NCBI GenBank assembly: GCA_018666775.1
Contig: JABIXC010000011.1
Span: forward strand, 12,881-76,880
Source of the DNA: Rhodospirillales bacterium
GTDB taxonomy: Bacteria > Pseudomonadota > Alphaproteobacteria > SMXQ01
Length of the DNA stretch: 64,000 nt
Direction: 5' to 3'
Part shown: piece after piece, positions 4,032-62,437 of the stretch
Layout of the letters: the number at the start of each line of letters is the position of its first letter
Numbering within the stretch: the stretch's first letter is position 1
Notes under the pieces: generated by a model
Database searches by the model: none
Told to the model about the DNA's origin: nothing
What the model saw: only the letters and a program-made list of their open reading frames with translations
Position numbers and translations under genes: made by a program

Positions 4032-5096
4032 ATGGCCCAAAGCCTTAAAACCATTGATGCTGATGCGCATGTTGTTGAAACCCCGTTGACCTTCGAATTT
4101 ATGGAGGAATCGGAAAAAAAGTTCACGCCACTGGTAACCAACCAGGTTTCCGGCGCCCAACAACTCAGCAATGAAGGCAACGTCCGATCCGAATACTGGA
4201 TCGTTGATAACAACGTCTATGCCAAGGATCGCAATGTCGACAGCCGTTCCGCCACAGAATGGCGTGAAATGACCGACATCAAAGGCCGCGTCAATCACAT
4301 GGATGAATTGAATATTGACGTTCAAATCCTGTATCCAACGCTGTTTTTGCGCCCCTGCACCGACAATTTCGAAATCGAATTTGCGCTGTTCCGTTCCTAT
4401 AACCGTTGGCTCGCCAGCATCTGGAAACAGGCGCCCGAACGTTTGCCTTGGGTTGCCATGGCACCGCTGCATTCGCCAATCGAAAAAATCCGTGAAGAAC
4501 TGGAATGGTGCAAGGCCAATGGCGCCAAGGGCATTTTCATGCGCCCATTGGAATGTGAAAAAGAAGCGTCTGATCCATACTTCTTCCCGTTCTACGAAGT
4601 TGCCCAAGAATTAAATCTTGGCATTTGCTTCCACGCGGGCAATGGCAGCTTCAAGGTCCATGATTTCTTCTTTCCAACCAATTTCCCGATCCATAAACTA
4701 AGCATGGTTGGGGCCTTCCACGGGCTGGTCATGAATGAAATTCCCCAGCGTTTCCCTGAATTACGCTGGGCCTTCATCGAGGCATCGTCGCAATGGCTTG
4801 GCTATGCCGCCCATGATTTGGCCATCCGCCAAAAGAAAAAAGGCAAACGCCCATCCAGCAACATTCTTGCCGATAACAATATCTGGATCGCGGTTCAGGT
4901 GGATGATGATCTTGATTACATCCTTGATCGGTATGCCGATGAAAACTATCTGGTTGTGGGCACCGATTATGGCCACACCGATACGTCAGCCGAAATTGAA
5001 GCCCTGCGCATGATCCGCGACGACGGGAAAATCCCGTCATCGGTGGTCGATAAAATCCTCGGCCCTAATGCCGCCAAACTTTACGATCTGGGTTAA
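4032..5096 (+). CDS. amidohydrolase-2 family protein (PF04909, ACMSD/LigW/LigJ-like metal-dependent hydrolase/decarboxylase), paralog A
   Basis: A 354 aa ORF whose N-terminus reads IDADAHVVETPLT, with MDELNIDVQILYPTLFLR and C-terminal VGTDYGHTDTSAEI. It has a strong Shine-Dalgarno site (GAGGGAG) and is a close paralog of the ORFs at 54937 and 61385. Confidence 0.85.
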   Translation: MAQSLKTIDADAHVVETPLTFEFMEESEKKFTPLVTNQVSGAQQLSNEGNVRSEYWIVDNNVYAKDRNVDSRSATEWREMTDIKGRVNHMDELNIDVQILYPTLFLRPCTDNFEIEFALFRSYNRWLASIWKQAPERLPWVAMAPLHSPIEKIREELEWCKANGAKGIFMRPLECEKEASDPYFFPFYEVAQELNLGICFHAGNGSFKVHDFFFPTNFPIHKLSMVGAFHGLVMNEIPQRFPELRWAFIEASSQWLGYAAHDLAIRQKKKGKRPSSNILADNNIWIAVQVDDDLDYILDRYADENYLVVGTDYGHTDTSAEIEALRMIRDDGKIPSSVVDKILGPNAAKLYDLG

Positions 5097-5198
5097 TCTT
5101 TTCGATTACAAATCATAAGCCACCGAACCCGGCAGGGTGCTGTTCGCACCTGCTGCTATTTTTTAAGAACAACAACACAAGAATGGGAGTTACATAAC

Positions 5199-5933
5199 AT
5201 GGCCTTCAAAAGCTGGAGAGGAACAGTCGGCATGATCAAACCGACGCGCCGTCCTGGATCACTGGAAGAGTTGATCCGCATGTTGCCAGAAGGCATTGGG
5301 GTTATCCCCCTGTTCCTGAGCATCAATCAGGGCACGACCGATGAATTCAAACGTGCGGTTGAACCCTTTATCCCATTGCTGGATGAACTAGCCGAAGAAG
5401 AAGTCGATCTCATGCATCCCGAAGGGGCACCGCCTTTCATGCTGTTGGGGTTTGATGGCGAAGCGGAACTGATCAAAAAATGGGAAAAACGCTACAACAC
5501 GCCCATTTTCACCTCTGGCACGAACCACGTCACGGCGCTGCGTGCCTTGAAAGCCAAAAAAATTGTCGGTGCAACGTATTTCACCGGTGAGATTAACAAC
5601 ATGTTTGGCAACTACTTCAAAGAGGCCGGATTTGATGTGCTGGCCATGGAAGGCATCGACCAGCCCTTTGATAAAATCGGGCAACTGTCTTCGGAACAGG
5701 TCTATGCCCACGTCAAGGAAATCGCCCTGAGATATCCCGAAGCCGATGCGGTTTACCTGCTGGGTTCGGGCTGGCGTGTGTTGCCGGTGATCGATATTCT
5801 GGAACAAGACCTGGGCATTCCCGTCGTCCATCCAGTGCCCGCGCGGTGCTGGGAAATCCAGAAGCGCCTGAACGTTCACCAACCGGTTGAAGGCTTTGGC
5901 TATCTTCTGGCTGAAATGGTCGACATGGACTAA
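5199..5933 (+). CDS. Asp/Glu/hydantoin racemase superfamily protein (arylmalonate decarboxylase / maleate isomerase-like)
   Basis: 244 aa, the length and fold pattern of the AMDase/maleate-isomerase family. The usual catalytic Cys pair is not obvious. Confidence 0.55.
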   Translation: MAFKSWRGTVGMIKPTRRPGSLEELIRMLPEGIGVIPLFLSINQGTTDEFKRAVEPFIPLLDELAEEEVDLMHPEGAPPFMLLGFDGEAELIKKWEKRYNTPIFTSGTNHVTALRALKAKKIVGATYFTGEINNMFGNYFKEAGFDVLAMEGIDQPFDKIGQLSSEQVYAHVKEIALRYPEADAVYLLGSGWRVLPVIDILEQDLGIPVVHPVPARCWEIQKRLNVHQPVEGFGYLLAEMVDMD

Positions 5934-5981
5934 ACCTACCCGGCCGGGGCAACCCGGCTGGATTATTCTGGAGAACACAGC

Positions 5982-6434
5982 ATGGCCGGAAAAGGGTTTA
6001 CCCCAACAGGCATCCTTCATTTTGCCATTGGTGTTGGTGATCTTGATGAAGGCCGTCGTTTTTATGAAGACGTGCTTGGCTGCACCTATTTGCGCCAAAA
6101 CGATTCCACTGTTTTCTTTCAGGCAGGGGATCAGTATTTCGTCCTGACCAATGCAAAAAACCACACGCCCCCCAATCCGCCCGGGGAATATGAATTTCAC
6201 CATGCCTTTACCGTCGAAGGTGATGGCTTTGATGATGCATTGAAATATGTCGAAGAACAGGGCTATCCCATCTTGATCTATGAAGAAGAAGGCCACCGCA
6301 CCTTCACCGGACGCCACGCCTATATTCAGGACCCGTGGGGAAATTCAATCGAGCTCATCGATTTCCACGGCATCGGCGATTTCTCACGGCCCGATTTTCA
6401 AGGCCGGCAACGTCGCCAGAAGACAGCAGAGTAA
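5982..6434 (+). CDS. VOC family protein (glyoxalase / extradiol dioxygenase fold)
   Basis: A 150 aa protein with the LHFAIGVGDLDEGRRFYEDVLGC beta-alpha-beta-beta-beta motif. Confidence 0.75.
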   Translation: MAGKGFTPTGILHFAIGVGDLDEGRRFYEDVLGCTYLRQNDSTVFFQAGDQYFVLTNAKNHTPPNPPGEYEFHHAFTVEGDGFDDALKYVEEQGYPILIYEEEGHRTFTGRHAYIQDPWGNSIELIDFHGIGDFSRPDFQGRQRRQKTAE

Positions 6435-6440: not shown

Positions 6441-7301
6441 CTAATCGGGCAATCCGGCCATCTTTCGCACAGCACCGGGGCTTAAACCCTGATCGCGGAA
6501 ATGCCTCAGGCTCAAGGCATCATTGCGCTTGGCAAGGCGCACCCCGGCACTGTCCTCGATCATGGGGTGATGGTAATATTCGGGCACATCCAACCCCAAC
6601 AAGGCCTGCAAAACCCGGTGCAGATGGGTGACAGGGAACAGATCAATGCCCCGGGTCACCAAGGTCACACTTTGATCTGCATCATCAACGGTGACACTTA
6701 AATGATAACTGGTGCCAATATCCTTACGCGCCAGCACCGCATCCCCAAACTGATTTTGATCCACCGCAATGGGGCCACGTTCCCGTTCAACAAATTCTAG
6801 CGGCCCAACCAGCCCCGCCGCCTTCTCCGCATCCAGACGCATGGCATGCTCAACGCCTGATGCCATACGAGTTTGGCGTTCCCCATCACTGAGTTTCCGA
6901 CACGTGCCGGGATAATCGATTAATCCATTTGAATGGGGCGCATCTGAATGGGGGGCACTGGCGGCGCGCTCAATCTCGGCATTAATTTCACGACGCGTGC
7001 AAAAGCAGGGATAAAGCACGCCCAAGCCTTCAAGCGTGTCCAAGGCGGCGCGATAGGCTGGATGCCTGGAATTTTGGCGCATCACCGGGGTTTCCCATGA
7101 AAGCCCCAACCAGGCCAGATCTTCAAAAATTGCTGCCTCAAAGGCATCGCTGCACCGGGTAATATCAATGTCTTCAATGCGCAGTAAAAACTGGCCCCCG
7201 GTTTTTTGGGCAATATCATGGGCAAACAGGGCCGAATAGGCGTGGCCCAGATGCAAATATCCCGTCGGCGATGGGGCAAATCGGGTTGTTTCGGGGTTCA
7301 T
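6441..7301 (-). CDS. gluQ: tRNA glutamyl-Q(34) synthetase (GluQRS)
   Basis: RFAPSPTGYLHLGHAYSALFAHDIA (a HIGH-type class I motif) and a ~286 aa length typical of truncated GluRS paralogs. Confidence 0.85.
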   Translation of the reverse strand: MNPETTRFAPSPTGYLHLGHAYSALFAHDIAQKTGGQFLLRIEDIDITRCSDAFEAAIFEDLAWLGLSWETPVMRQNSRHPAYRAALDTLEGLGVLYPCFCTRREINAEIERAASAPHSDAPHSNGLIDYPGTCRKLSDGERQTRMASGVEHAMRLDAEKAAGLVGPLEFVERERGPIAVDQNQFGDAVLARKDIGTSYHLSVTVDDADQSVTLVTRGIDLFPVTHLHRVLQALLGLDVPEYYHHPMIEDSAGVRLAKRNDALSLRHFRDQGLSPGAVRKMAGLPD

Positions 7302-7401
7302 GAATGCACTTTCTCAGTTGATCTTTTAATTATGCGGCCCCTCGCCCACAACGCAAGACTGTGATAAGTATTTGGGAAATTCTACACAAGGGAGAAACGC
7401 C

Positions 7402-8289
7402 ATGGATGCGTCCACCGATCAAGGGTTCGAAGACCAATTCACAGAAGTTGAAGGATTTAAAATCCGCTATCTGGAACGCGGCACCGGCCCTGCCGTTATC
7501 ATGCTCCATGGGGCATCGCTTGGATCCTCTGCCGATGTCTTTCGTCGCAACATTGCCGCCATTGGCGATGCGGGCTTGCGGGCCATCTCTCTGGACATGC
7601 CGGGCTTTGGCAAAAGCGACTATTCCGATGATGCATCCATGGGCCTTAAGGTCAAAATCGTCCTGGGCCTGATGGCCGCCCTTGGCATTGATAAGGCATC
7701 CATCATTGGCCATTCCCAAGCCGGCAACACCGCCGTACGCTTGGGCATTGATCACCCTGATCGCATCAACAGCGTGGTTATTCTGGGCACGGGCAGTTTG
7801 CTGCCCCCCCTTGAAAGTGGTGCGGGCCAACGCGAAGAAGCAGCGCGTGAACGGGTCGACCAACGCATGGCGCGCATTGAACCCGGCATTGAAGAAACCC
7901 GCAAGCTTTTAGAAGCAACCGTGTTTCACCACGACCTCATCACCGATGATGAACTGGCCTTGCGCCATTCGCTTTCCGTCGGCCAATGTTTCAAGGCCCA
8001 TGTTGCACGCACCGAATTATCAGCGGCGGCCAAGCAAAAGGCCAAAGATGCGCCTGCAAAACCCGCTGGAAAAGCCATGTGGGAACAGGTTGCTGATTTA
8101 ACCATCCCGTCCTTGATGATCTATGGCCGCGAAGACCGCGCCCGTGCCGCTGATCGGGCTGCCTTGTTGGTAGAAAAGCGCCCGGGCATTAATTTGCACA
8201 TGGCAGAGGGCTGCAAACATCTGGTGCCATGGGATGCATCCGCTATGGTCCACGATTTGGCCATCCCCTTCATGAAGGAAAATTCCTGA
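7402..8289 (+). CDS. alpha/beta-fold hydrolase
   Basis: HGASLGSS followed by a GHSQAG nucleophile elbow. The start was chosen at the ATG preceded by AAGGGAG. Confidence 0.8.
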   Translation: MDASTDQGFEDQFTEVEGFKIRYLERGTGPAVIMLHGASLGSSADVFRRNIAAIGDAGLRAISLDMPGFGKSDYSDDASMGLKVKIVLGLMAALGIDKASIIGHSQAGNTAVRLGIDHPDRINSVVILGTGSLLPPLESGAGQREEAARERVDQRMARIEPGIEETRKLLEATVFHHDLITDDELALRHSLSVGQCFKAHVARTELSAAAKQKAKDAPAKPAGKAMWEQVADLTIPSLMIYGREDRARAADRAALLVEKRPGINLHMAEGCKHLVPWDASAMVHDLAIPFMKENS

Positions 8290-10227: not shown

Positions 10228-10764
10228 CTAGCCAATCGCTACCACCCGGGTCTTGATGGCGGGGGTGGGTTCAGTGACTTCCAGAAAATCATCGGCCACC
10301 AGCCAAAACCCCAAATCCCGCGCAATTTCAGCAATTTCGCCCGGTTTTGCTAGAAAATCAGGATTGGATGGGCGGCCAAAATGGCCATTGCCTGACCCAA
10401 AGGTTTCATAAATCAACACCCCACCCGTATCGACCAATTTCATAGTCTGCAACAAGGTATCGCGGTGCAAATAATTCACCACCAACACGGCCTTGAATTT
10501 CTCATCCACAAATGGCCATGGCGTACCGTTTTCCAAATCCCATTCCAATACCTCCATCGCGCCCGCACGATCATCCAGCTGGGCCAATCCGCCACAATCG
10601 CGATCCACCGCCAACACCCGGTGCCCCCGATCCAACACGGCCATTGCATGGCGCCCCCGCCCCGCCGCCAAATCCAGCACGCGCGCTTCCCCCGCCCCAA
10701 TCCGAGACAAATGCTCCACCACCCAAGGGGACGGTGCGGGGATATCATGATTGGGATCGGTCAT
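10228..10764 (-). CDS. class I SAM-dependent methyltransferase
   Basis: VLDLAAGRGRHAMAVLDRGHRVLAVDRD (motif I) with an acidic loop. Its stop overlaps the start of the upstream gene. Confidence 0.75.
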   Translation of the reverse strand: MTDPNHDIPAPSPWVVEHLSRIGAGEARVLDLAAGRGRHAMAVLDRGHRVLAVDRDCGGLAQLDDRAGAMEVLEWDLENGTPWPFVDEKFKAVLVVNYLHRDTLLQTMKLVDTGGVLIYETFGSGNGHFGRPSNPDFLAKPGEIAEIARDLGFWLVADDFLEVTEPTPAIKTRVVAIG

Positions 10765-11861
10765 TCTCCAACAGGCTCCAAACGCAAGACGGCACCGTTG
10801 GGCTCGTCGGTTAGAAGATAGAGAAACCCGTCGGGGCCGTTGCGGACGTCGCGGATGCGGGTGTTGAATTTTTTTAACAACCGTTCTTCCGATGTGATGG
10901 TTTTTCCCTTCACGGTCAGGCGAACCAGAATTTTAGCCGCCAGCGCACCGACGAATAAATTGCCCTGCCATTTTGGAAAGGCCTTGCCGGTGTAAAACGC
11001 CATGCCGGACGGTGCGATAGACGGCACCCAGAATTTCAGGGGCTGTTCCATGTCCGGGTGATGGTGGCTGCCGCTGCCGATGGGAAAGCCCGCATACGAC
11101 ACCCCATGGGTAATCACCGGCCAGCCGTAATTGATGGCGGGTTTGATCAGGTTGACTTCATCGCCCCCACGGGCACCATGTTCATGGGCAAAAATGGCGC
11201 CGGTTTTTGGGTCCAGTGCCATGCCTTGGGGGTTGCGGTGGCCATAGGAATAAATTTCTGGAAAGGCATCGGTCCGCCCCACAAACGGATTGTCTTTGGG
11301 AACCCTGCCATCATCCATCAACCGGATCACCTTGCCCCGGTGGTCTTTTAAATTCTGGGCCGCATCTGGGGTGCCGCGCTCACCGGATGTGATAAACAAA
11401 TGCCCTGCCCGATCAAACACAAGACGCGATCCAAAATGGTGGCTGCTGTTGGTTGCGGGTTTGGCCTCAAATATATTGGTGACCTGGGTTAACCCCCCGC
11501 CAGATAATTTGGCGCGGATCACCCGGGTGGCACTGCCATCAGATTTAGATGCCGAATAAGAAAGATAGATCCATCGGTTTTTTGAAAACTGCGGATGCAC
11601 CACAACATCCAACAAGCCCCCCTGCCCACCGGCCACCACCGGGGGCAGGCCGGGAATGGGTTTGGGCAACAATTTACCCCCCGAAATACGCCGCAACCGG
11701 CCTCTGCGTTCGGTCACAATCAGGTCCCCATTGGGCAAAAAAGCGAGCCCCCATGGGTGGTCAAGACCCCGGGTAATCGTATAAAGGCGAAATTTGTGAT
11801 CCTGGGCGGTAAAAACCTGCGCCTGAATTGGCCGCACAAAGGCCATACCCGCCAGCATCAT
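10761..11861 (-). CDS. PQQ-dependent sugar (glucose/sorbosone) dehydrogenase, soluble beta-propeller type
   Basis: DHPWGLAFLPNGDLIVTERRGRLRRI and later HRNPQGMALDP motifs. The N-terminus MMLAGMAFVRPIQAQV is signal-like. The ORF that runs further upstream passes through tRNA-Phe and is an artefact. Confidence 0.75.
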   Translation of the reverse strand: MMLAGMAFVRPIQAQVFTAQDHKFRLYTITRGLDHPWGLAFLPNGDLIVTERRGRLRRISGGKLLPKPIPGLPPVVAGGQGGLLDVVVHPQFSKNRWIYLSYSASKSDGSATRVIRAKLSGGGLTQVTNIFEAKPATNSSHHFGSRLVFDRAGHLFITSGERGTPDAAQNLKDHRGKVIRLMDDGRVPKDNPFVGRTDAFPEIYSYGHRNPQGMALDPKTGAIFAHEHGARGGDEVNLIKPAINYGWPVITHGVSYAGFPIGSGSHHHPDMEQPLKFWVPSIAPSGMAFYTGKAFPKWQGNLFVGALAAKILVRLTVKGKTITSEERLLKKFNTRIRDVRNGPDGFLYLLTDEPNGAVLRLEPVGE

Positions 11862-11905
11862 AGCCAAGGCACATATCGATAAAATATTGATTTTAAAGGG
11901 AAAAA

Positions 11906-11981
11906 TGGTGCCCAGGGGCGGAATTGAACCACCGACACGAGGATTTTCAGTCCCCTGCTCTACCAACTGAGCTACCTGGGC
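11906..11981 (-). tRNA. tRNA-Phe (anticodon GAA)
   Basis: The manual cloverleaf is GCCCAGG/CCUGGGC acceptor, GCUC/GAGC D-stem, anticodon loop CUGAAAA and GGUUCAAUUCC T-arm, ending in CCA. Confidence 0.95.
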
Positions 11982-12048
11982 ATCGGGTGGCGTTATAGGG
12001 GCAATCTGGCCGCCTGTAAAGCCACCGTGAAGGGGACGGTTTGGATCA

Positions 12049-12306
12049 TTAATTTGTGTCTGCGTCTGGGTCATTCCCAAAGCCCTGTTCATCGCCTTCC
12101 GGGGGCTCTTCTGCCGGAATTCGATAGTCTTCCCGGAACCACCGGCCAAGGTCCAGATCGGCGCAGCGCTTTGAACAAAAGGGCCGATAAGCGATTTCCA
12201 TCGGCGCACCACAACTGATGCAAATCTTGCCCCGGGCCGCGGCCGGAAAATCAGCCACCACCGCGCCCTTGCCCGGTTTCTGCTTTGATTTGGTGTCTTT
12301 CGCCAT
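12049..12306 (-). CDS. yacG: DNA gyrase inhibitor YacG (zinc-ribbon protein)
   Basis: CISCGAPMEIAYRPFCSKRCADLDLGRWFREDYRIP matches the YacG signature. Confidence 0.75.
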   Translation of the reverse strand: MAKDTKSKQKPGKGAVVADFPAAARGKICISCGAPMEIAYRPFCSKRCADLDLGRWFREDYRIPAEEPPEGDEQGFGNDPDADTN

Positions 12307-12384
12307 GGAAAAATAATAATCAACCCTGTGTGTTTTCACAACTGACCTGTGTGCCTAGCACAGCTGGCCCGTGCACGGTCTCTC

Positions 12385-19023: not shown

Positions 19024-19059
19024 AAAGCATTCTCCTGTTTCTAGCCAGTTACTGGCTTT

Positions 19060-19248
19060 TTATCGACCACCGCCACCGGGACGGCGGAGGGTCTTTTTCG
19101 CAGATAAGTTCATGGCGTGCTTTTGCGCCTTGCGACGATGCAAGTTGGTGCGCAAAGCCTCGCCCTGGCGCGATTTTCGTGCGGCCAGCAATGCTTCTGC
19201 ATTTTTCTTGAGATTGCTTTTCTCGTCGGGCTTTTCATCATCACTCAT
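19060..19248 (-). CDS. small basic hypothetical protein
   Basis: Lys/Arg-rich 62 aa ORF (MSDDEKPDEKSNLKKNAEALLAARKSRQ...). No recognisable family. Confidence 0.3.
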   Translation of the reverse strand: MSDDEKPDEKSNLKKNAEALLAARKSRQGEALRTNLHRRKAQKHAMNLSAKKTLRRPGGGGR

Positions 19249-19529: not shown

Positions 19530-19564
19530 TTCTTTTTCTACAAATTCAAAGACATTCCGGGGCT

Positions 19565-21005: not shown

Positions 21006-21020
21006 CCGTGCAATCCGGGG

Positions 21021-34489: not shown

Positions 34490-35560
34490 TTAAATCACCA
34501 GCTTATACAGATCGATGACATTCTGGCTTAAGACCCGTTTCTGGGCTTCGGGTGAAAGTTCGCCGCACTGGCGTCCCACAAAAGCTCTGGAATTGGGCCA
34601 GGTCATATTGGGGTGGGGATAGTCGCTGGACCACATGCAGTTTTTATCACCCCAGAATTTGAGGGTTTGTCCACCCACGTAATCATCCATAAACGTGGCA
34701 TGAACATGATCCATAAAGATTTCGCTGGGCAATCTGGAAATCAAAAAATCTTCATTGGAATGGCCGGGCTTTGTATTGCGAAGATAATAATAATCCCACT
34801 GCTGCAAAATAAAGGGGATCCAGCCAATTTCGCCTTCGACGATTTCCACCGTCAGTTTGGGGTGACGTTCAAACACGCCAGACCAGATCAAATCGAACAC
34901 CGTGGTCACCACCTCTGAGGTTTTGATGTTGACGGAACCGCGCACTTTTTCCATGCCCGCGCGTTTTTCACGGAAATAATTAAACCCGGTCAGAATGTGG
35001 AAATTAAGCGGATAATCCATTTCAGCCGCAGCCGCCCAAAGCTTTTCATAATGGGGCGAGGTCAGCGGCAATTTCGGATCCGGCACCTGCCAGACCAGCG
35101 CACCCTTAAGGCCCATATCATTGCAGCGATGCATTTCCTTGATCGCGCCATCGATGTCGTAAACCGAAATGCAAGGAATGGCGAACAGGCGCTTCGGAGA
35201 CGTATTACAAAAATCAGCGATCCAGTCGTTGTAAACCCGAAAGGCTGCTTCTTGCACATCAGGCTCGGATGCAAACAGGCCGAGGGTAAAGGTTGGATAC
35301 AGCACCTCTGCGGCAACGCCATCAATATCCATGTCGGTGATCCGGACGGCAGGGTCGCTGCCCCCCTTTGGCCGGGTATCGGGCTGAACCTTTGGGCGGG
35401 TCATCCGGTCAAGAATGCTTGGTGGCAATTCATTGAACATATCGGCCGGTTCATCCACATGGCCATCTGCGGAAACAAGAAAGCTCGGGACCTTTTCGCC
35501 CGCCGCTTTCATCTCCGGATCAACATAGCGCGCAGACATTTCATCGATTGTCATGGACAT
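34490..35560 (-). CDS. amidohydrolase-2 family protein (PF04909), divergent paralog B
   Basis: SADGHVDEP N-terminal metal-ligand motif and a C-terminal SSDYPHP motif. Confidence 0.8.
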   Translation of the reverse strand: MSMTIDEMSARYVDPEMKAAGEKVPSFLVSADGHVDEPADMFNELPPSILDRMTRPKVQPDTRPKGGSDPAVRITDMDIDGVAAEVLYPTFTLGLFASEPDVQEAAFRVYNDWIADFCNTSPKRLFAIPCISVYDIDGAIKEMHRCNDMGLKGALVWQVPDPKLPLTSPHYEKLWAAAAEMDYPLNFHILTGFNYFREKRAGMEKVRGSVNIKTSEVVTTVFDLIWSGVFERHPKLTVEIVEGEIGWIPFILQQWDYYYLRNTKPGHSNEDFLISRLPSEIFMDHVHATFMDDYVGGQTLKFWGDKNCMWSSDYPHPNMTWPNSRAFVGRQCGELSPEAQKRVLSQNVIDLYKLVI

Positions 35561-48682: not shown

Positions 48683-49228
48683 TCAGTCGAACAATTCGTC
48701 CACGGCCGACTGGTCAAGGGTGGATGCTGCGGCTTTGTCTTTCGTCTCAGTGGCATCTAATTGATCGAATGTCACGATGGCACCGTTTATGATTGATCCT
48801 GCAGATTCCTGTAATGCCCTGAGGGCTGGCAGGGTTGATGCAACAACTTCGCGCAGAATATCGTCATTGCCACCTGACAGCGCTTTTTCGGCTGCCTCAA
48901 TCCCTTCGAACAATGCAACATCAAGCCGGGCCGTCACCGTATCAAACGGCACGCGGTAACAATCAGGGGCATGTTCATAGGCCTTTATTGCCAAATCACG
49001 GTCGGAAAAACCGGAATAACGAAAATGATTCACATATGATTTTGGACGCCATGCCTTCACATCTTCCAGGCAATCAGGCATGTCAGGCAGCATCTCATAC
49101 ATCATCATCACTTCGTTATAATGATTGAGATAGTCCGTCGCGAGCATGCTTTGCTCGTTGATATTCGTGCCCGCAAGCGCCGCCTGAACAGCTTTGCTTT
49201 CAACAATATGGGAACGTTTTGTATTCAT
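48683..49228 (-). CDS. hypothetical protein
   Basis: ORF with a start at the internal Met (MNTKRSHIVESK...). No recognisable family. Confidence 0.4.
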   Translation of the reverse strand: MNTKRSHIVESKAVQAALAGTNINEQSMLATDYLNHYNEVMMMYEMLPDMPDCLEDVKAWRPKSYVNHFRYSGFSDRDLAIKAYEHAPDCYRVPFDTVTARLDVALFEGIEAAEKALSGGNDDILREVVASTLPALRALQESAGSIINGAIVTFDQLDATETKDKAAASTLDQSAVDELFD

Positions 49229-49365
49229 TTCTTCCTTCCAGATTCTTCTAAAGAAGAAAATCTCACCACACAAACAACCATACCATCTTAACCGCCCCCG
49301 GTTTCTGGCAGGTTAACGATTGCCCGTTTAAAAGCATCTTATAAAAATTATTAAAAATCAGGGTG

Positions 49366-53512: not shown

Positions 53513-54028
53513 ATGACGGATTTGCCAAAAGCACCTAAAAAATCAGACCCTATCCCTTGGGACGGGGATCACGATGCAAAACCCAGCTTTTTTAAAATGA
53601 AGGCGCAATTGCTTGATGGGGGCAACACGGAAACGCCGCTCGCCATCGGTGATCATCTTTGGCTCAAGATCAAGGTCTATGCCAAAGGCGGCGAAAACCA
53701 GCTTCATGCCCACCCCCACCAAGACCATTCATTTATCGTTCTTGATGGGCGCGCCTGTTTCCACGGGCCTCGGGATGAACAAAAGGAACTGGGGAAGGGT
53801 GAGGGGATTTTCCTGCCCAAGGGCAGTTTTTACTGGTTTGAAACCATCAGTGAAGAACCATTGGTTTTGCTTCGCGTCGGTGCTACCGAAGCCGATGTCG
53901 CGAGCCAAGACACCAAACACCCAGACACACGCATCATGCCCGATGGCAGCTGGCAGGTCCGTCGCGGACGGAGCGACACCTTTGTGTCAAAAGACATCGA
54001 TTATCGTGATGGGGAATTTTACGAATAA
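53513..54028 (+). CDS. cupin-domain protein
   Basis: LHAHPHQDHSFIVLDGRA...GEGIFLPKGSFYWFE, a two-motif cupin signature. Confidence 0.7.
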   Translation: MTDLPKAPKKSDPIPWDGDHDAKPSFFKMKAQLLDGGNTETPLAIGDHLWLKIKVYAKGGENQLHAHPHQDHSFIVLDGRACFHGPRDEQKELGKGEGIFLPKGSFYWFETISEEPLVLLRVGATEADVASQDTKHPDTRIMPDGSWQVRRGRSDTFVSKDIDYRDGEFYE

Positions 54029-54082: not shown

Positions 54083-54892
54083 TCAGTGTTCGGTGATGTC
54101 GAGCCAGGTGCCGTCGGGATCGCACATCTGGTATTCACCGGTTGCCCATTGGCGGAAAAAACCGGCGCGAACGTCGGCTTCTTTTGCACCGCCCAGGTTC
54201 ACAGGGGCCAAATATTGGTTGGCACCGGTTGCGTCTTTCACGTCTTGTTTGAGCTGTTCAATGCTTTCAACCTTCAGGCCAATGTGATCGGGGCCGGGCC
54301 GTTTGATGACCATGCCTTCGAGCACGCCAATGGACCACGGCATCAAGGCCAAGGTCACACGACCATCGGTCAATTCGACCGAGCCGTTATCGGGTTGTTT
54401 GTTGGAAAGCTTCAATTCAAACACGTCTTGATAAAAATCAGCGACCCTTTGAACATTCGGAGTGCGGATCGCAAATTTGTTAAGATAGCGATCCTGATTC
54501 CAGCTTTCCTTTGCCGATTCGGCATACATGTTGGAACGCTTGTCGTCCTTTTTCTGGGCAAGATCGAAGATATTACAATCAGGATCATTACCGCTATAGG
54601 CCGCAAAAGGCCGGGTCGAAGGCCGCTTGACCAGATCGGAATCTGGCCATTTTTTCTGGATGCGCGCCAAAACTTCTTCGACATCATCGACGACAAACCC
54701 AAAATGATCGAGCCCGCCTGAACAGCCATCGCGTTTTGGGTTGATGTTGATGCCGGCATAACCGTCACTACAAACGACCCCGTGAAATGGACGGTGTGTC
54801 CCGGTTTTAAGGCCGAATACGGCTTCATAGAACCGGCCAACCATGGGGTAATTACTGCTGGCCATGGCCATATGATTGATAGATGCAAACAT
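54083..54892 (-). CDS. two-domain VOC family protein (glyoxalase / extradiol-dioxygenase fold)
   Basis: 269 aa with two beta-alpha-beta-beta-beta modules (YEAVFGLK, YQDVFELK). Confidence 0.7.
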   Translation of the reverse strand: MFASINHMAMASSNYPMVGRFYEAVFGLKTGTHRPFHGVVCSDGYAGININPKRDGCSGGLDHFGFVVDDVEEVLARIQKKWPDSDLVKRPSTRPFAAYSGNDPDCNIFDLAQKKDDKRSNMYAESAKESWNQDRYLNKFAIRTPNVQRVADFYQDVFELKLSNKQPDNGSVELTDGRVTLALMPWSIGVLEGMVIKRPGPDHIGLKVESIEQLKQDVKDATGANQYLAPVNLGGAKEADVRAGFFRQWATGEYQMCDPDGTWLDITEH

Positions 54893-54936: not shown

Positions 54937-55989
54937 CTAGATGCCGTAGAGCGCTTTGGCATTGGCGTTGAGAATTTTCTCTGCCACCTCTGCCGACACT
55001 TTGCCGTCATCTTTCAATTTGCGCAGAGCTTCGATCTCAGCCGAGGTATCGGCATGGCCGTAATCCGTGCCGACCACCAATTGGCCATCGCCTGCGTATT
55101 TCAGCACATATTCCAGATCATCTGTCACCTGACAGGCGACAAACATGTTGTTATCGGCCATGGCGGTATCAGACAGTCTTTTGCCTTTGCGCTTGAACCG
55201 GATCGCAAGATCATTCAGCGCATAGGGAATCCACTGTGAACTAACCTCAACAAAGCCCCAGCGCAATTTCGGGAACATCCCAGGCACACCCTTCATCAAC
55301 AAGGAATGGAAGGCGCTGACCACGGGCAATTTTGAACGTCCAAAGCCTGCTTCGGATGCGTAGATATCGCGCACACCGAATGAATTGTTTCCGGAATGGA
55401 AACAAATCGGCATATCCAGTTCTTGGGCCTTTTCGTACATCGGATAAAAATAAGGATCATCCAGACGGCGTTCGCATTCAAGACCACGGATAAAGATTCC
55501 GACGGCGCCATTTTCCTTGCCAAATTCCAGTTCTTCCATGGTTTTATCCATGGACATAAGCGGTGGCATCACGACCCATTTAAGGCGGTCCGGTGCCTTG
55601 CTCCAGATATCTGCCAACCACCGATTATATGATTTGCAAATGGCCGCCTCGGCCAACGCGTTCTGGGTCCAGGCCCGCAAAAAAACCGTGGGATAAAGAA
55701 CCTGAACATCAATGTTGAGCTCGTCCATGTGATCGAGGCGAATTTTAACATCAACCATCTCGCGGGAATCTTTGGTCGTGTTATGGCCGACATTGCCTTC
55801 TTTTGGCTGGATGCGGCCATCAATGGCCCAAAATTCCTTTTGAATGTGTTTGCCTTCGTTATCCAGTTGGCCCGCATCTTCATTCTTGTGAAGGATCACC
55901 TGTGGCTTCAGGTGTTCATATTCTGGGTCCATATAATCAAAGGTTCTTTCACACTCGACAACATGAGCATCGGAATCGATCGCTCCCAT
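54937..55989 (-). CDS. amidohydrolase-2 family protein (PF04909), paralog C
   Basis: IDSDAHVVE, MDELNIDVQVLYPTVFLR and VGTDYGHADTSAEI. About 50% identical to paralogs A and D. Confidence 0.85.
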   Translation of the reverse strand: MGAIDSDAHVVECERTFDYMDPEYEHLKPQVILHKNEDAGQLDNEGKHIQKEFWAIDGRIQPKEGNVGHNTTKDSREMVDVKIRLDHMDELNIDVQVLYPTVFLRAWTQNALAEAAICKSYNRWLADIWSKAPDRLKWVVMPPLMSMDKTMEELEFGKENGAVGIFIRGLECERRLDDPYFYPMYEKAQELDMPICFHSGNNSFGVRDIYASEAGFGRSKLPVVSAFHSLLMKGVPGMFPKLRWGFVEVSSQWIPYALNDLAIRFKRKGKRLSDTAMADNNMFVACQVTDDLEYVLKYAGDGQLVVGTDYGHADTSAEIEALRKLKDDGKVSAEVAEKILNANAKALYGI

Positions 55990-56201
55990 AGGGTTCTCCT
56001 TGTACGCTTTGTTTGTACTTGATCAGATGGGGCCATTTTACTTCGCTTTCTAATGGATTGGAAGGGGTCTTGCGCACAAGACCCAAAAAATGAGCATTTT
56101 AGCCAGTATTGCCTGCCCGGTCTTTGGGCGATACATTGGAAACAATCCGCAACAATGCGGGGAATACATCACAAGAACGATTTTCACAGGAACCACCCCC
56201 C

Positions 56202-57347
56202 ATGACTGCTGCCCTTGATGACATCACCATTTTAGAATTCGCCTCATACGTATCGGGGCCATATGCCGGTATGTTGCTGGGGGATCTTGGCGCAGAAATC
56301 ATCAAGATCGAAGACAACAAATCCGGCGATTCCTTCCGCGGTTGGGGTGCCGCTGATTATTCCGCCACCTTTGGGTCCGTTAATCGCAACAAGAAAAGCA
56401 TCATTTTAGACCTTAAATCCGAAGAAGGCCGGGCCGCCGCACTGGCTTTGGCCGAAACCGCCGATGTGGTGATTGAAAATTTCCGCCCCGGCGCCATGGA
56501 TCGTTTGGGGCTTGGCTATGATGCCTTGGCTGCCATTAATCCACGGCTGATTTATTGTTCCATCACCGGCTTTGGCCGCACCGGGCCGTATGCTGATCGC
56601 CCGGGATACGACACCGTGGGTCAAGCCATGGGTGGGTTGCTGTCCGTGCTGACCGATCTTGAAAAACCTCAGCCCATGGGCATTTCCCTATCCGATCACC
56701 TGACCGGCATCATGGCCACCTATGGCATTTTGGGCGCGTTAATGGCGCGCACGAAAACCGGCAAGGGCCAGCGCGTTGAAACATCGCTTTTGTCTTCGAC
56801 CCTTGCCTTTTTGGGTGAAAATGCCGCACGGTATTTCGAAGAAGGGAATGTTCCGGCCCGCAAGACCCGCACCGAAACAGCCCAAGTGTATGCCTTTGTC
56901 GACAGCGAGGAAAAACCCTTCGTCGTGCATCTATCATCGCCCCCTAAATTCTGGAAGGGCCTGTGCGATGTTGCCGGTCACCCGGAATGGGTTGAGGATG
57001 AACGGTTCAAGGACAAGGCTGCACGGCGTAAATCATACGATATCCTCCATGCCGGGTTTCAAGACATCTTCAAGGCCAAACCCCGCGACCATTGGCTGGA
57101 TGCCTTGCGCAAAGCCGATGTGCCATCGGCCCCCATTTACACCCTGGACGAAGCCCTGGCGGATCCACAAGTGCAACACCTTGATATGGTGACCGAGCTG
57201 GATCATCCCAAAGTGGGGAAGGTCAAATTGCTGACGGGGGCTGTAAAGTTTTCGGACACACCGGTGGAAATCAAAACCCCGGCACCGATGCATGGCCAAC
57301 ACACTGCTGAAATTCTTGCCCGCCTGAAAAACAGGGAGACAAAATGA
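56202..57347 (+). CDS. family III CoA-transferase (CaiB/BaiF)
   Basis: ILEFASYVSGPYAGMLLGDLGAEIIKIE N-terminal signature. The stop overlaps the start of the next gene. Confidence 0.85.
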   Translation: MTAALDDITILEFASYVSGPYAGMLLGDLGAEIIKIEDNKSGDSFRGWGAADYSATFGSVNRNKKSIILDLKSEEGRAAALALAETADVVIENFRPGAMDRLGLGYDALAAINPRLIYCSITGFGRTGPYADRPGYDTVGQAMGGLLSVLTDLEKPQPMGISLSDHLTGIMATYGILGALMARTKTGKGQRVETSLLSSTLAFLGENAARYFEEGNVPARKTRTETAQVYAFVDSEEKPFVVHLSSPPKFWKGLCDVAGHPEWVEDERFKDKAARRKSYDILHAGFQDIFKAKPRDHWLDALRKADVPSAPIYTLDEALADPQVQHLDMVTELDHPKVGKVKLLTGAVKFSDTPVEIKTPAPMHGQHTAEILARLKNRETK

Positions 57348-58537
57348 ACACCCCCATCGCCAATCCTGCCTTGCGGGATAAATATGCCGTCGTCGGCACC
57401 GGGGTATCACAGCTCGGCAAGGTGCCAGAGCAAAGCGCCCTTGGCCTGACCGAAGACGCCTGTGCCAATGCCCTTATTGATGCCGGGCTGAGCGCCAAAG
57501 ACATCGATGGTCTGTTGATCCGGGGACCCGATGACATTTACACCTTTCATCAAGTGGTCGGCGAACGGCTTGGCATTAATGCCAGCTTTTCCACCACCAC
57601 GGCCAATGGCGGTGCCAGCCAGATCCTGTCCGTCATCATGGCGGTCATGGCCATTGATGCAGGCCTGGCCACCACGGTCTTGTGCGGGTATGGCCGCAAT
57701 GCCTGGTCACGGTCGCATGCCAATGAAACCACCAAACTGCGGTCATCAACCCGGTCTGAAGAAATGGATTCGTCCGAATTTGGCCCCGAATACGGGCTTT
57801 ACGGTGCCCCCGCCATGCATGCCTTCGGGGCCCAGCGCCACATGCATGAATTTGGCACCACCCGCGAACAGTTTGGCGCCATATCATTGGCCTTTCGCGA
57901 ACACGCCATGCGCAACCCGGTGGCCCAGATGCGCGACAAACCGTTATCCATGGAAGATTATCTGGCCGCCCGCATGATCGTCGATCCGTTCTGTCTGCTT
58001 GATTGCAGCCTGCGATCCGATGCGGCAGGCGCAGTCATTGTCACGTCAGCTGAGCGGGCCAAAGATATGAAACAAACCCCTGTGTTGATCAAGGGCTTTG
58101 GCACCCACAATAATTTGCAAGGCTGGTTTGCGGGCGACAACATGATCCGCACCGCCGCCGGGCCATCGGGCAAAACGGCCTATGCCATGGCCGGCCTTTC
58201 CCCCAGCGATATATCCTGTGCCCAGATTTATGACTGCTTCACCTACATGGTTTTGGCCCAGCTAGAAGATTATGGCTTCTGTGAAAAGGGTGCCGGCGGG
58301 GCATTTGTTGAATCGGGCGCATTGGCCCTGAACGGTGCCTTGCCCACCAACACCTCTGGTGGCCAATTGTCCGAAGCCCATGCCGAAGGCATGTTGCAAA
58401 TCGTTGAAGGCGTGCGCCAATTACAAGGTATTTATGGCCCCGATCGACAGGTCAAAAATGCCGAAACCTGCCTTGTATCGGGCCATGGTGGCAACACTGT
58501 GTGCCATTCAACCCTGATTTTGGGGGTCGCATCATGA
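57344..58537 (+). CDS. thiolase-fold protein (SCP-x / lipid-transfer-like thiolase, a DUF35 partner)
   Basis: A 397 aa thiolase-like protein with a C-terminal GHGGN motif. It is translationally coupled to the OB-fold gene. Confidence 0.8.
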   Translation: MNTPIANPALRDKYAVVGTGVSQLGKVPEQSALGLTEDACANALIDAGLSAKDIDGLLIRGPDDIYTFHQVVGERLGINASFSTTTANGGASQILSVIMAVMAIDAGLATTVLCGYGRNAWSRSHANETTKLRSSTRSEEMDSSEFGPEYGLYGAPAMHAFGAQRHMHEFGTTREQFGAISLAFREHAMRNPVAQMRDKPLSMEDYLAARMIVDPFCLLDCSLRSDAAGAVIVTSAERAKDMKQTPVLIKGFGTHNNLQGWFAGDNMIRTAAGPSGKTAYAMAGLSPSDISCAQIYDCFTYMVLAQLEDYGFCEKGAGGAFVESGALALNGALPTNTSGGQLSEAHAEGMLQIVEGVRQLQGIYGPDRQVKNAETCLVSGHGGNTVCHSTLILGVAS

Positions 58538-58941
58538 CCGAATACACCAAACCCCTGCCCCGCCCATCGACAGAAACGAAGCCGTTTTGGGATGGCGCAA
58601 AAGCGCATCAGTTTTTGATCCAGAAATGCAATGATTGTGGGAAATTCTGGTTCCCCCCCTCTACCCGCTGCATCCATTGCTTGTCGGAAAACCATGGCTG
58701 GGTCGAAGTATCGGGAAAGGGCCGCGTGTTTTCCTTCGTCACCTATCACCGCATGTATCACAAGGGCTGGAAAGATGACCTGCCCTACGTTGTTGCTGTG
58801 ATTGAACTGGAAGAAGGGCCAAGGCTGTTGTCCAACATCACCAACTGCGCCCCCGAAGACGTCAAATGCGATATGGCCGTGAAGGTCGTGTTTGACGATG
58901 TCACCGAAGACACCACCTTGCCAAAATTCAGCCCGGTATAA
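58534..58941 (+). CDS. Zn-ribbon / OB-fold protein (DUF35 family)
   Basis: A CNDCGKFWFPPSTRCIHC rubredoxin-like ribbon followed by an OB fold. Confidence 0.75.
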   Translation: MTEYTKPLPRPSTETKPFWDGAKAHQFLIQKCNDCGKFWFPPSTRCIHCLSENHGWVEVSGKGRVFSFVTYHRMYHKGWKDDLPYVVAVIELEEGPRLLSNITNCAPEDVKCDMAVKVVFDDVTEDTTLPKFSPV

Positions 58942-59936: not shown

Positions 59937-59978
59937 TGGACATAAAGAAAATTTAAAATCTGTGAAAATTAAACCGGG

Positions 59979-61223
59979 TCAGGAATGCTCCGCTTCTAGG
60001 GCGGCCGTCATGGTGGATCGGCGTGAAAGGGTGCTGAACCACATAACAAGGCAGATGCCCCCCGCCACCGCAAAAGTGAGCCGAAGCCCAAGACATTCAG
60101 CAAGAAGCCCGGTGCCAAGGGCACCAAGGGCCGGGGTGCCGCGATAGATCAGGGTATAGAGCCCCATCACCCGCCCCCGTTTTGAATCGTCCACCGCATA
60201 TTGCACCAATGCCTGGGTGCCCGTAGACATGGCATTGAGGGAAAACCCTGAAAATACGGCAAAAATAATGGCCACCCATAAGTAATTGGTGGCAACAAGG
60301 CCCAAGGTTGAAAGGCTGAGTCCTAAGAATCCAAAAAGCACCATTGATGTCAAACCACTGACGCGCCCGCGCAGGGCAATCCAGGTGGCGCTCATGGTAG
60401 CACCTACCCCCATGCCTGATGTCAACCATGCCAAGCCCACGGCACCACTATCAAACACGGCACCAGCGAAGCCCGGCAGCATGTCCTGAACCGGGCGGAT
60501 AAAAACCGAAATCAATGTCATAAAAAACAAAATGGGGCCGATGCCTGCATGGTTTCGCACATAAGAAAAGCTTTCGCCGACATCGCGCAAAATATTGCGA
60601 CCGGCCTTCTTTTCTCGCACCGGCGGCTCAAGATCCATAAAAAACATGGACCCCAGAAAAATCAAATTACCAACCACATTTGCAGCAAAGGTGCCGCCAA
60701 CCCCCACCTGCAAGATAACGATCCCGGCGATTGCCGGCCCAATGAAACGCGATGCATTGAACAGGGCCGAATCTACGGCAACGGCGGTGGCAAATTCCGC
60801 TCTTGGCACGGTTGCAGGCACAATGGCATGACGCGCCGTGGATGCCAGGGTATGGGTCAACCCCAGAAACAGGGTCAGGCCAAACAGGATTCCAATGTTC
60901 ATCCAGCCAGCAAACAGAAATACCGCCAGCGCCAAGGCGTGAAGGACGGATAAAACCTGGGTAATTTTTTGCAAGGTCAGCGGGATATAGCGATCTGTCA
61001 TGGCACCGGCAATGGGTGCCAATAGCAGCATGGGCATCAGGTCAGCCGCCGCAATGACGCCAAGCCATGTTGGCGATTTGGTCATTTCCCATGCCAACCA
61101 GCCAACCCCCACCCGCTGCATCCAGATGGTGATCAGGTTCGGGGTCATGCCCCCCATATAGAGCGCATAATTTCGGTGGGCAAAAACCCGGGTGATCGGC
61201 GTGAACCAACTGGAAGCGGCCAT
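59979..61223 (-). CDS. MFS transporter
   Basis: A 414 aa protein with 12 predicted transmembrane helices and the MFS motif between TM2 and TM3. Confidence 0.85.
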   Translation of the reverse strand: MAASSWFTPITRVFAHRNYALYMGGMTPNLITIWMQRVGVGWLAWEMTKSPTWLGVIAAADLMPMLLLAPIAGAMTDRYIPLTLQKITQVLSVLHALALAVFLFAGWMNIGILFGLTLFLGLTHTLASTARHAIVPATVPRAEFATAVAVDSALFNASRFIGPAIAGIVILQVGVGGTFAANVVGNLIFLGSMFFMDLEPPVREKKAGRNILRDVGESFSYVRNHAGIGPILFFMTLISVFIRPVQDMLPGFAGAVFDSGAVGLAWLTSGMGVGATMSATWIALRGRVSGLTSMVLFGFLGLSLSTLGLVATNYLWVAIIFAVFSGFSLNAMSTGTQALVQYAVDDSKRGRVMGLYTLIYRGTPALGALGTGLLAECLGLRLTFAVAGGICLVMWFSTLSRRSTMTAALEAEHS

Positions 61224-61384
61224 ACAGTCTTATGAAACCTGATTTTTAAATTGAGAGCCCTCTATTAGCACGGTTTGGGGCCTTTACAAGAATCACTCTC
61301 AATTCAAAGCTGTCCTCATGGGTGACACAGGGTCCCTGGTCGCGATAGAATGGCCGGAAAGCACCAAGTAACCGGGAGAACGCT

Positions 61385-62437
61385 ATGGGCTGCGTAGATG
61401 CAGACGCACACGTTATTGAATCGCCATTGACCTGGGATTTCATAGCCGAAGAAGACAAAGCACACACCCCCTTGATGGTCGTCCAGACAGAAGGGCGTGA
61501 GGTCAAGAGCAACGAAGGCGGGACGTCCAAGGAATACTGGCTGATGGACAACCGTTTCCACGCCAAAGACAAGAACGTTGGCTCTGATACATCAATCGAA
61601 TCCCGCGAACTCAGCGATATCGGCGCACGCATTGCGCATATGGATGAATTGGGCATTGATATTCAGGTCTTATATCCCACGCTATTTCTGCGTCCCGCTG
61701 TTCGCACGGCCGCCGCTGAATTGGCCGTGACCAAAGGCTATAACCGCTGGCTTGCCAGCATTTGGAAACATGCCCCAAAGCGTCTACCCTGGGTCGCCAT
61801 GCCACCCTTGATGTCACCCGATAAAATTCGCGACGAATTGACGTGGGCCAAAGACAATGGGGCCTGCGGCGTTTTCATGCGCGGCCTTGAATGCGACCGC
61901 ACCGTGGCGGATCCCTTTTTCTTTCCGCTGTATGAAGCGGCCAGTGAACTGGATTTAGCCATCTGTTTTCATTCGGGAAACAATTCCATTATCCACCATG
62001 ATTTTTTCCTGGAAGACACCACCTTCACCAAATTCAAACTGGCCGTGGTGGGGGCATTTCATTCCCTTTTGGAAAAAGACATCCCCGGAAAATTCCCCGA
62101 CCTGCGTTGGGGCTTTGTTGAAATCAGCGCCCAGTGGGTGCCCTATGTCTGTCATGATCTGCGCTATCGTTTCATGCGCCTTGGCCGTCGTATGCCCGAA
62201 AATCTTTTGGAAGCAAACAAAATTTTTGTCGCCTGCGAAGTGACCGATGACATTCCCTATATCCTGAAATATGCAGGCGATGATCAATTGATGGTCGGCA
62301 CCGATTATGGACATCACGACCCATCGGCAGAAATCAACGCCTTCACCATTATGCGCAACCGCGAAGATGTGGCGCCCGATGTAATGACCAAAATTCTGGA
62401 AACCAATGCACGGACGCTTTACGGGCTTGACGGATAA
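61385..62437 (+). CDS. amidohydrolase-2 family protein (PF04909), paralog D
   Basis: VDADAHVIESPLT, MDELGIDIQVLYPTLFLR and VGTDYGHHDPSAEI. Confidence 0.85.
   Translation: MGCVDADAHVIESPLTWDFIAEEDKAHTPLMVVQTEGREVKSNEGGTSKEYWLMDNRFHAKDKNVGSDTSIESRELSDIGARIAHMDELGIDIQVLYPTLFLRPAVRTAAAELAVTKGYNRWLASIWKHAPKRLPWVAMPPLMSPDKIRDELTWAKDNGACGVFMRGLECDRTVADPFFFPLYEAASELDLAICFHSGNNSIIHHDFFLEDTTFTKFKLAVVGAFHSLLEKDIPGKFPDLRWGFVEISAQWVPYVCHDLRYRFMRLGRRMPENLLEANKIFVACEVTDDIPYILKYAGDDQLMVGTDYGHHDPSAEINAFTIMRNREDVAPDVMTKILETNARTLYGLDG

Follow-up and report, generated by a model that had tools for sequence, protein, structure and literature searches.

Amidohydrolase-2 paralogs of a Rhodospirillales bacterium carry a metal-ligand set resembling that of dinuclear oxygenases

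Amidohydrolase-related dinuclear oxygenases (AROs) are members of PF04909 that use a carboxylate-bridged Fe2, Mn/Fe or Mn2 centre for C-H hydroxylation. The characterised AROs are PtmU3, DitZ, AibH2, SfbO and BarH-like oxidative decarboxylases. Their signature is D-x-H in strand 1 together with D-x-P-H-x-[D/E] after strand 8; the hydrolases and decarboxylases of PF04909 that have been characterised show neither motif (PMC13154177). The published motif defines a set of roughly 17,000 sequences. High-potential AROs of the Fe2 type are marked by a small non-hydrophobic residue at x of D-x-H and by an aromatic residue that ends strand 2, and they largely lack Rieske ferredoxin neighbours. Here we describe four PF04909 genes, AH1 to AH4 (Table 1), in a 64,000-nucleotide stretch of the genome of a Rhodospirillales bacterium (contig JABIXC010000011.1, positions 12,881 to 76,880; hereafter the window). 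All four encode an ARO-like ligand set, and we tentatively suggest an oxidative role for them.

The four open reading frames (ORFs) are uninterrupted and score 57-79 bits with the PF04909 (Amidohydro_2) HMM (gathering cut-off 26.4), with essentially the whole profile covered. The initial annotation had described four PF04909 genes, three of them close copies about half identical to each other and the fourth distant, and our values agree with it: identity is 54.5% for AH1/AH2, 53.7% for AH1/AH3 and 52.9% for AH2/AH3, and 22-26% between AH4 and AH1-3. The mutual likeness of AH1-3 is far beyond chance. The peptides given as shared are present in all three close copies but are not strictly identical. 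The N-terminal motif reads IDADAHVVE in AH1, IDSDAHVVE in AH2 and VDADAHVIE in AH3; the second peptide reads MDELNIDVQILYPTLFLR, MDELNIDVQVLYPTVFLR and MDELGIDIQVLYPTLFLR, respectively; the third reads VGTDYGHTDTSAEI in AH1 and ends in HADTSAEI in AH2 and HHDPSAEI in AH3. None of the NCBIfam models names any of AH1-4, members of the AH1-3 and AH4 families have only generic database names ('predicted TIM-barrel fold metal-dependent hydrolase'), and the best solved relative of AH1 is 8SM9, at E = 4e-7 only. Thus none of the proteins is close to a characterised enzyme, in line with the earlier remark that none of the three close copies has an obvious tie to a known pathway.

A fifth close paralog of 354 aa lies about 2.4 kb to the left of the first base of the window. 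It was found at 7013-8077(+) of locus L087 (L numbers denote loci in other genomes), on contig JABJJK010000015.1 of the alphaproteobacterial metagenome-assembled genome (MAG) GCA_018660925.1. It is 53% identical to AH1, carries IDADAHVIE and GTDYGHHD, and is divergent from an NAD_binding_2 dehydrogenase similar to 3-hydroxyisobutyrate dehydrogenase (HIBADH). The same amidohydrolase-dehydrogenase pairing is present in L006, L007, L009 and L016.

In AH1-3 we found D11-A-H13, H201, E250 and D312-Y-G-H315-x-D317, with spacing matched to AROs, and these residues are invariant in an alignment of AH1-3 with 12 homologs (A2). The ligands of AibH2 are D25, H27, H211, E265, D337 and H340, with D342 as a critical second-sphere residue (PMC10401708); they correspond to D11, H13, H201, E250, D312, H315 and D317 of AH1. 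All 120 closest homologs have D-Y-G-H-x-D, and 116 of them also have N-terminal D-[AS]-D-A-H-V. In the AlphaFold model of AH1 (pLDDT 83.8, pTM 0.87) each candidate ligand stands at the C-terminal end of a barrel strand (8-14, which holds the D-x-H region, 197-201, 246-249 and 307-309). At the position of the motif Pro, 108 full-length members in 79 loci have Gly (99), Asn (6) or Pro (3). Representatives at 50% identity have G, S, T or A there, with Pro only among the most distant members listed, so that the AH1-3 family grades into canonical AROs.

AH4 has D32-G-H34, H188, E242 and D313-Y-P-H316-P-N318. The terminal Asn is kept across the AH4 family and aligns with the metal-binding Glu of PtmU3 and Asp of DitZ. 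When the AH1-3 and AH4 families were compared with hhalign, all ligand residues were in register (probability 99.7%). The strand-1 D-x-H is present in all four proteins and invariant in both families, and the AH4 profile aligns there to 'SADSHVLEP' of PtmU3. The strand-5 His and strand-6 Glu are also in place (H201/E250 in AH1, H188/E242 in AH4) and align with the His and Glu of 4dzi, 8sm9, SfbO, PtmU3 and DitZ. As to the second sphere, x of D-x-H is here a small residue (A/T/C/S), and strand 2 ends in an invariant Tyr (Y101 in AH1-3, Y88 in AH4). Judged from these residues, AH1-4 would fit the high-potential, Fe2-dependent ARO class. The initial annotation had proposed an inspection of metal ligands and active-site residues; the residues give the ARO set, and none of the proteins is LigW-, LigJ- or ACMSD-like at the catalytic positions.

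We placed the proteins among characterised PF04909 enzymes by search ranks and alignments. With the A2 profile, 4dzi (DWPHGE), 8sm9, SfbO, PtmU3 and AibH1 lead the PDB matches at E = 1e-17 to 1e-10, and the AROs 8sm8 and AibH2 score 1.4e-9 and 9.2e-7. The first decarboxylase is ACMSD (1e-8); LigW and gamma-resorcylate decarboxylase also rank below the top five. AH4 matches PtmU3 at E = 7.5e-37 (9e-47 with the AH4-family profile), and DitZ is also a strong match. AH1-4 are closer to known AROs than to non-redox PF04909 enzymes, and no close similarity to the LigJ hydratase or to the LigI and cog3618 lactonases was found. Foldseek by itself did not discriminate between ARO and other PF04909 structures. 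The preference for AROs is consistent, with a modest margin; the residue pattern is the main argument.

The initial annotation had implied chemistry of the LigW, LigJ or ACMSD type, that is, non-oxidative decarboxylation or hydration of aromatic acids. Enzymes of this kind (LigW, ACMSD, gamma-resorcylate decarboxylase, IDCase, LigJ) work at a mononuclear Zn/Mn site. They have the Pfam family and overall fold in common with AH1-4, and the VOC and cupin proteins encoded nearby could be ring-cleavage dioxygenases. However, ACMSD, LigW, gamma-resorcylate decarboxylase, 2,3-DHBD, IDCase and LigJ differ from the AH proteins at three catalytic positions. Decarboxylases have [H/E]-x-H in strand 1, His in strand 6 and D-x-P-F in the strand-8 loop, whereas the AH proteins have D-x-H, Glu at the position of the catalytic His, and D-Y-x-H (D-Y-G-H-x-D in AH1-3). 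In the alignment with gamma-resorcylate decarboxylase, 'GHMGEG' and 'TDWPFEN' stand opposite 'VESEIGW' and 'SDYPHAN'. Mononuclear decarboxylases and hydratases rank lower in every search, and IDCase and LigJ gave no match at E < 0.01 with the A2 family profile. Some of the compared loci also hold a classical PF04909 protein with H-x-H and H-G-G-G (cluster c29), which looks different. Since the catalytic positions differ and the nearest relatives by sequence and structure are di-metal oxygenases, we regard decarboxylase-type chemistry as improbable.

PtmU3 (6OMP/6OMQ) and DitZ (8UYR) share with AH1-4 the strand-1 D-x-H, the strand-5 His, the strand-6 Glu and the Asp and His of the strand-8 loop, as well as the small x, the aromatic end of strand 2 and the lack of a Rieske ferredoxin neighbour. 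In contrast to them, AH1-3 have Gly (S/T/A/N in relatives) at the motif Pro and an additional beta-hairpin of some 32 residues inserted behind strand 1, and AH4 differs from both in its Asn. PtmU3 and DitZ belong to terpenoid pathways, whereas AH1-3 stand in catabolic operons of MAGs. Identity of AH1-3 to any solved ARO is only 17-22%. The low-potential, Rieske-coupled AROs (AibH1H2, SfbO and 'TruffO', 8SM7-8SM9) share the ligand set with the AH proteins and are, like them, encoded in catabolic operons for small polar molecules. The AH proteins differ in that x of D-x-H is not a hydrophobic Val/Ile and that the motif His is not followed by an aromatic residue, and their loci have neither Rieske ferredoxin nor flavin reductase genes nearby. 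4DZI, a structural-genomics protein of unassigned function (MAP2389c of Mycobacterium avium, 423 aa), has the canonical Pro and is about 18% identical to the AH proteins.

The family to which AH1-3 belong is very large. In a protein database clustered at 90%, AH1 retrieved 2,658 proteins at E < 1e-10, all generically named; among clusters at 50% identity the family profile matched 7,409 (E < 1e-3), 2,572 (E < 1e-10) and 414 (E < 1e-30). Contigs from one genome per species hold at least 545 relatives. The best 80 of these are all from MAGs, mainly Alphaproteobacteria/Rhodospirillaceae, together with Binatia, 'delta' lineages and Dehalococcoidia, and many MAGs carry several copies. The plasmid collection gave one weak relative only (30% identity). 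By neighbour joining, the three close copies fall into distinct clades: AH1 with L001 and relatives (64-72% identity), AH2 with L015, L020, L025, L032, L034 and L055 (77-79%), and AH3 with L030, L046 and L061 (74-80%). Each close copy has orthologs of 72-80% in other MAGs with all motifs intact. As orthologs are 72-80% identical and paralogs about 54%, and as the clades are separate, a recent duplication does not fit. AH1-3 are thus ancient paralogs, each with an orthologous clade of its own in a large, multi-copy and uncharacterised family.

We compared gene neighbourhoods across the 79 loci by mapping curated window proteins with tblastn. GC3-weighted gene calling was dropped, as it mis-called window genes (e.g. 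an antisense ORF in place of the Amdase-fold and VOC1 genes), and the length-greedy ORF clusters c1, c27, c28, c30, c31 and c39 were ignored as antisense artefacts. In the window, Pfam annotation agrees with the partner genes listed earlier for AH1-3, and the placement of these paralogs in three different catabolic-looking operons was borne out (Table 1).

Table 1. The AH genes of the window and their neighbours.
Feature	Coordinates	Strand	Remarks
NarL/LuxR-type response regulator	2653-3372	+	upstream of AH1; kept with AH1 orthologs in L001, L005
Single-domain receiver	3449-3814	-	upstream of AH1; kept with AH1 orthologs in L001, L005
AH1	4032..5096	+	PF04909, 354 aa; ARO-like ligands; opens AH1-Amdase-VOC1 operon
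Asp/Glu-racemase-fold enzyme (arylmalonate decarboxylase (Amdase)/maleate isomerase-like)	5199..5933	+	PF17645; 102 bp downstream of AH1
VOC1	5982..6434	+	single-module VOC/glyoxalase fold, 150 aa; Pfam, NCBIfam
AH4	34490..35560	-	PtmU3/DitZ-like PF04909; no operon partners
MR/MLE enolase-superfamily enzyme	50248-51348	+	first arm of conserved AH2 cluster
ADP-forming acyl-CoA synthetase	51354-53483	+	first arm of conserved AH2 cluster
Small cupin	53513-54028	+	first arm of conserved AH2 cluster
VOC2	54083..54892	-	two-domain, 269 aa; downstream of AH2; weak methylmalonyl-CoA-epimerase-like match
AH2	54937..55989	-	PF04909, 350 aa; strand-6 E; GTDYGHAD
Family III CoA-transferase	56109-57347	+	divergent from AH2; second arm of conserved cluster
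SCP-x-type thiolase	57344-58537	+	divergent from AH2; second arm of conserved cluster
DUF35/ChsH2 OB-fold with zinc ribbon	58501-58941	+	divergent from AH2; second arm of conserved cluster
Major facilitator superfamily (MFS) transporter	59979..61223	-	divergent from AH3; MFS beside AH3 orthologs in L025, L061
AH3	61385..62437	+	PF04909, 350 aa; GTDYGHHD; opens AH3-SDR-AKR operon
Short-chain dehydrogenase/reductase (SDR)	62475-63296	+	after AH3; SDR follows AH3 orthologs in L030, L061
Aldo-keto reductase (AKR)	63351 to window end (64000), incomplete	+	after SDR

L001 retains the operon of AH1 with its Amdase-fold and VOC1 genes, together with the two response regulators, and L005 retains it in part. 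The Amdase-fold protein has weak NCBIfam matches, among solved structures it is closest to the hypothetical protein 4ix1 (E = 1e-20), and an 80% ortholog occupies the same position in L001. VOC1 is weakly matched by the epoxide-opening thiol transferases FosB/FosA as its closest solved relatives (E about 1e-7), a likeness that would suit processing of an epoxide or an activated product. No PDB relatives were found for the cupin or for VOC2. AH4 has tRNA-Pro (35700-35776(-)) 140 bp upstream on the same strand, and its relatives show no conserved synteny; hence its context gives no functional clue. Promoter- and terminator-like sites were too weakly enriched to set operon boundaries; a promoter-like site (10/12) that precedes AH3 at 61322-61351 is not significant. 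Across the family, dehydrogenase genes of the SDR or HIBADH type are frequent neighbours, as one would expect of enzymes that form an alcohol. When the window and the 79 loci were scanned for Rieske motifs, no small ferredoxin was found, only 5 large oxygenase alpha-subunit-like ORFs in 4 loci, and the window has no match to a Rieske-type Pfam domain. The AH loci thus lack the small Rieske ferredoxin gene that is found nearby in the Rieske-coupled ARO subclass.

The neighbourhood of AH2 recurs in 11 other MAGs (L013, L015, L017, L020, L025, L029, L031-L034 and L055), with DUF35, thiolase and CoA-transferase genes on one side, cupin, CoA ligase and MR/MLE genes on the other, and often an ABC transporter. 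The literature yielded nothing relevant on this gene combination or on PF04909 paralog expansions. L025 is syntenic with the window from 49 to 62 kb, including AH3, the MFS gene and the CDF gene; VOC2 is missing from this locus, and AH is present in a further copy. Clusters in L013, L025, L032, L034, L055 and others carry two or three tandem AH copies with intact ligands, while the window has a single copy and the unrelated VOC2. Since AibH1H2 is a heteromer of two PF04909 paralogs, and AH genes often stand in tandem, as pairs or triplets, in other MAGs, the AH proteins might be non-catalytic, structural partners like AibH1 that support another subunit. Yet all copies, both members of tandem pairs included, keep the full ligand set, and AH1, AH3 and AH4 each lack an adjoining PF04909 gene. 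Because the ligands are kept throughout, we consider a structural role highly improbable.

Two further observations concern genes next to family members. An ORF of 196 aa in the window (48683-49273(-)) with no Pfam match is kept beside DsbA, bordering the AH2 cluster, in L013, L025 and L055 (cluster c26). In the Binatia-type loci L037, L038, L040, L043, L044 and L056, a paralog of 27-28% identity precedes the family gene in tandem (in L044 the two are about 1.9 kb apart instead); this paralog (e.g. L056 6825-7952) has IDADGHVQE and ASDYNHGD, with Asn at the motif Pro position, and so adds another variant of this loop.

The initial annotation had proposed that an amidohydrolase-plus-VOC unit was duplicated and redeployed. 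We found no significant similarity between VOC1 and VOC2 (BLASTP E = 0.06), the AH3 module has no VOC gene, and VOC2 is not part of the conserved AH2 clusters of other MAGs. As the two VOC proteins are unrelated, no such unit was duplicated. A VOC pairing does hold for part of the family: VOC1-type genes adjoin members of several clades (L001, L008, L019, L021 and L022).

Overall, O2-dependent hydroxylation seems to us the most likely activity of AH1-4 and the fifth paralog, with a likelihood somewhat short of even. The analysis shows their fold, family, ligand conservation, nearest relatives, orthology and synteny, and from these we infer metal content, O2 chemistry and substrates. All five proteins are TIM-barrel PF04909 metalloproteins and would belong in or immediately beside the ARO branch, not in the mononuclear decarboxylase/hydratase branch. 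Each would bind a carboxylate-bridged two-metal centre, Fe2 or possibly Mn/Fe, in AH1 through Asp11 and His13 of strand 1, His201 of strand 5, Glu250 of strand 6 and Asp312, His315 and Asp317 of the loop after strand 8. With O2 and an external reductant, this centre may act on a small organic acid or its CoA thioester by hydroxylation or oxidative cleavage. In module 1 (AH1) the product would be handled by the racemase-fold enzyme and the Fos-like VOC protein, and in module 2 (AH2) by the CoA-transferase, CoA ligase, thiolase/DUF35, MR/MLE enzyme and cupin. The substrate of module 2 is probably a CoA ester or the free acid, because almost all of its partners act on CoA esters (the ligase, the transferase, thiolase/DUF35 and the VOC protein with its weak methylmalonyl-CoA-epimerase match). 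PtmU3 reportedly acts on CoA thioesters. In module 3 (AH3) the MFS protein would import the substrate, and the SDR and aldo-keto reductase would process the product; the dehydrogenases of this module and of that of the fifth paralog (module 0) could oxidise the alcohol formed.

Several observations weigh against an oxygenase role. The literal D-x-P-H-x-[D/E] motif is not found: AH1-3 have D-Y-G-H-[T/A/H]-D, with Gly for the non-ligand Pro, and AH4 has D-Y-P-H-P-N, with Asn for D/E. Both deviations are conserved family-wide, and AH1-3 retain all three functional positions (Asp, His, Asp). Since the motif is missed by one residue in each case, we class AH1-4 as ARO-like variants and not as ARO members. 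No gene for a reductase or ferredoxin partner lies near the AH genes; this is not a strong objection, because genes of the high-potential class largely lack Rieske ferredoxin neighbours. Some MAGs with family members are labelled Syntrophobacterales/Thermodesulfobacteriota, where a role for O2 would be odd if these are strict anaerobes; the labels are doubtful, because the gene order matches that of Binatia loci. Finally, the AH neighbourhoods (SDR/AKR and MFS; MR/MLE, CoA-transferase and thiolase) agree equally well with a lactonase or hydratase.

This last point makes a non-redox hydrolase, lactonase or hydratase a serious rival, which we hold possible but less probable than an oxygenase. 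A one- or two-metal site would activate water and open a lactone or hydrate a double bond, and the hydroxy acid formed would pass to the neighbouring SDR, AKR or HIBADH-type dehydrogenase for oxidation, or else to CoA-dependent cleavage. PF04909 contains lactonases and hydratases (LigI, LigJ and the cog3618 fuconolactonase), and other parts of the amidohydrolase superfamily often have hydrolytic centres with two metals. The pathway neighbourhoods of LigI and of the cog3618 L-fucono-1,5-lactonase (SDR, AKR, MR/MLE, transporters) resemble those of the AH genes. Module 3, with its MFS, AH, SDR and AKR genes, has the content of oxidative sugar or lactone pathways, and module 2, with its cupin, cycloisomerase-like MR/MLE, AH, CoA-transferase and thiolase genes, in outline mimics a beta-ketoadipate-type route with the AH protein as enol-lactone hydrolase. 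The missing reductase partner also speaks for this reading. Against this, no characterised PF04909 hydrolase has D-x-H or D-x-x-H-x-D (PMC13154177), and every tested PF04909 protein with the ARO ligand set has so far been an oxygenase or oxidase.

Going beyond the oxygenase assignment, one could picture AH1-3 as an unrecognised, very large branch of di-metal oxygenases that act on CoA-activated acids independently of Rieske proteins and are missed by the published ARO filter. The motif of this branch would be D-x-[G/S/T/A/N]-H-x-D, and its members would be present in multiple copies in abundant uncultured Alphaproteobacteria, Binatia and related MAGs. In the AH2 cluster, direct O2-dependent hydroxylation ahead of thiolase/DUF35 cleavage would replace the acyl-CoA dehydrogenase and hydratase steps. 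We consider this wider proposal rather unlikely on present sequence evidence.

Other features of the window were noted in passing. It is chromosomal DNA, with the housekeeping genes hisDG, murA, dxs, glyQS and ispB. A tRNA-Phe (11906-11981(-)) lies inside a mechanically called ORF of 520 aa (10761-12323(-)); the true glucose/sorbosone dehydrogenase gene there is shorter (358 aa in the L087 gene calls, with the Pfam domain from residue 187). A tRNA-Thr (19455-19529(+)) lies inside an ORF of 217 aa with no Pfam match (19016-19669), which is probably spurious. Two genes of the squalene/phytoene-synthase family flank dxs (20124-23839(-)), an arrangement that resembles an HpnC/HpnD-type squalene or hopanoid set. 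A PF01979 (Amidohydro_1) member at 24848-25921(-), between a Zn-dependent alcohol dehydrogenase and two glycosyltransferases, is unrelated to AH1-4. At 37263-39765 and 40294-43885, genes for a cytochrome c, a DUF6969 protein and a cytochrome P460-domain protein adjoin a TAXI-type TRAP transporter with a DctM/DUF3394 fusion as membrane protein and with an NMT1_3 binding protein.

By their annotation as 'amidohydrolase family proteins' the AH genes are ordinary, but the implications of their residues are not. Annotation as LigW- or ACMSD-like decarboxylases is inappropriate for them whichever of the metal-site readings holds, and the conserved AH2 cluster is a concrete, portable set of roughly eight genes. 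Should the site prove hydrolytic, PF04909 would gain its first example of the ARO ligand set in a non-redox role. If the site is instead a two-metal oxygenase centre, the motif Pro would be dispensable and the ARO superfamily substantially larger than the motif-captured sequences. A whole multi-copy 'amidohydrolase' family of environmental Alphaproteobacteria and Binatia would then consist of oxidative enzymes, and the catabolic potential of these uncultured groups would be read differently.

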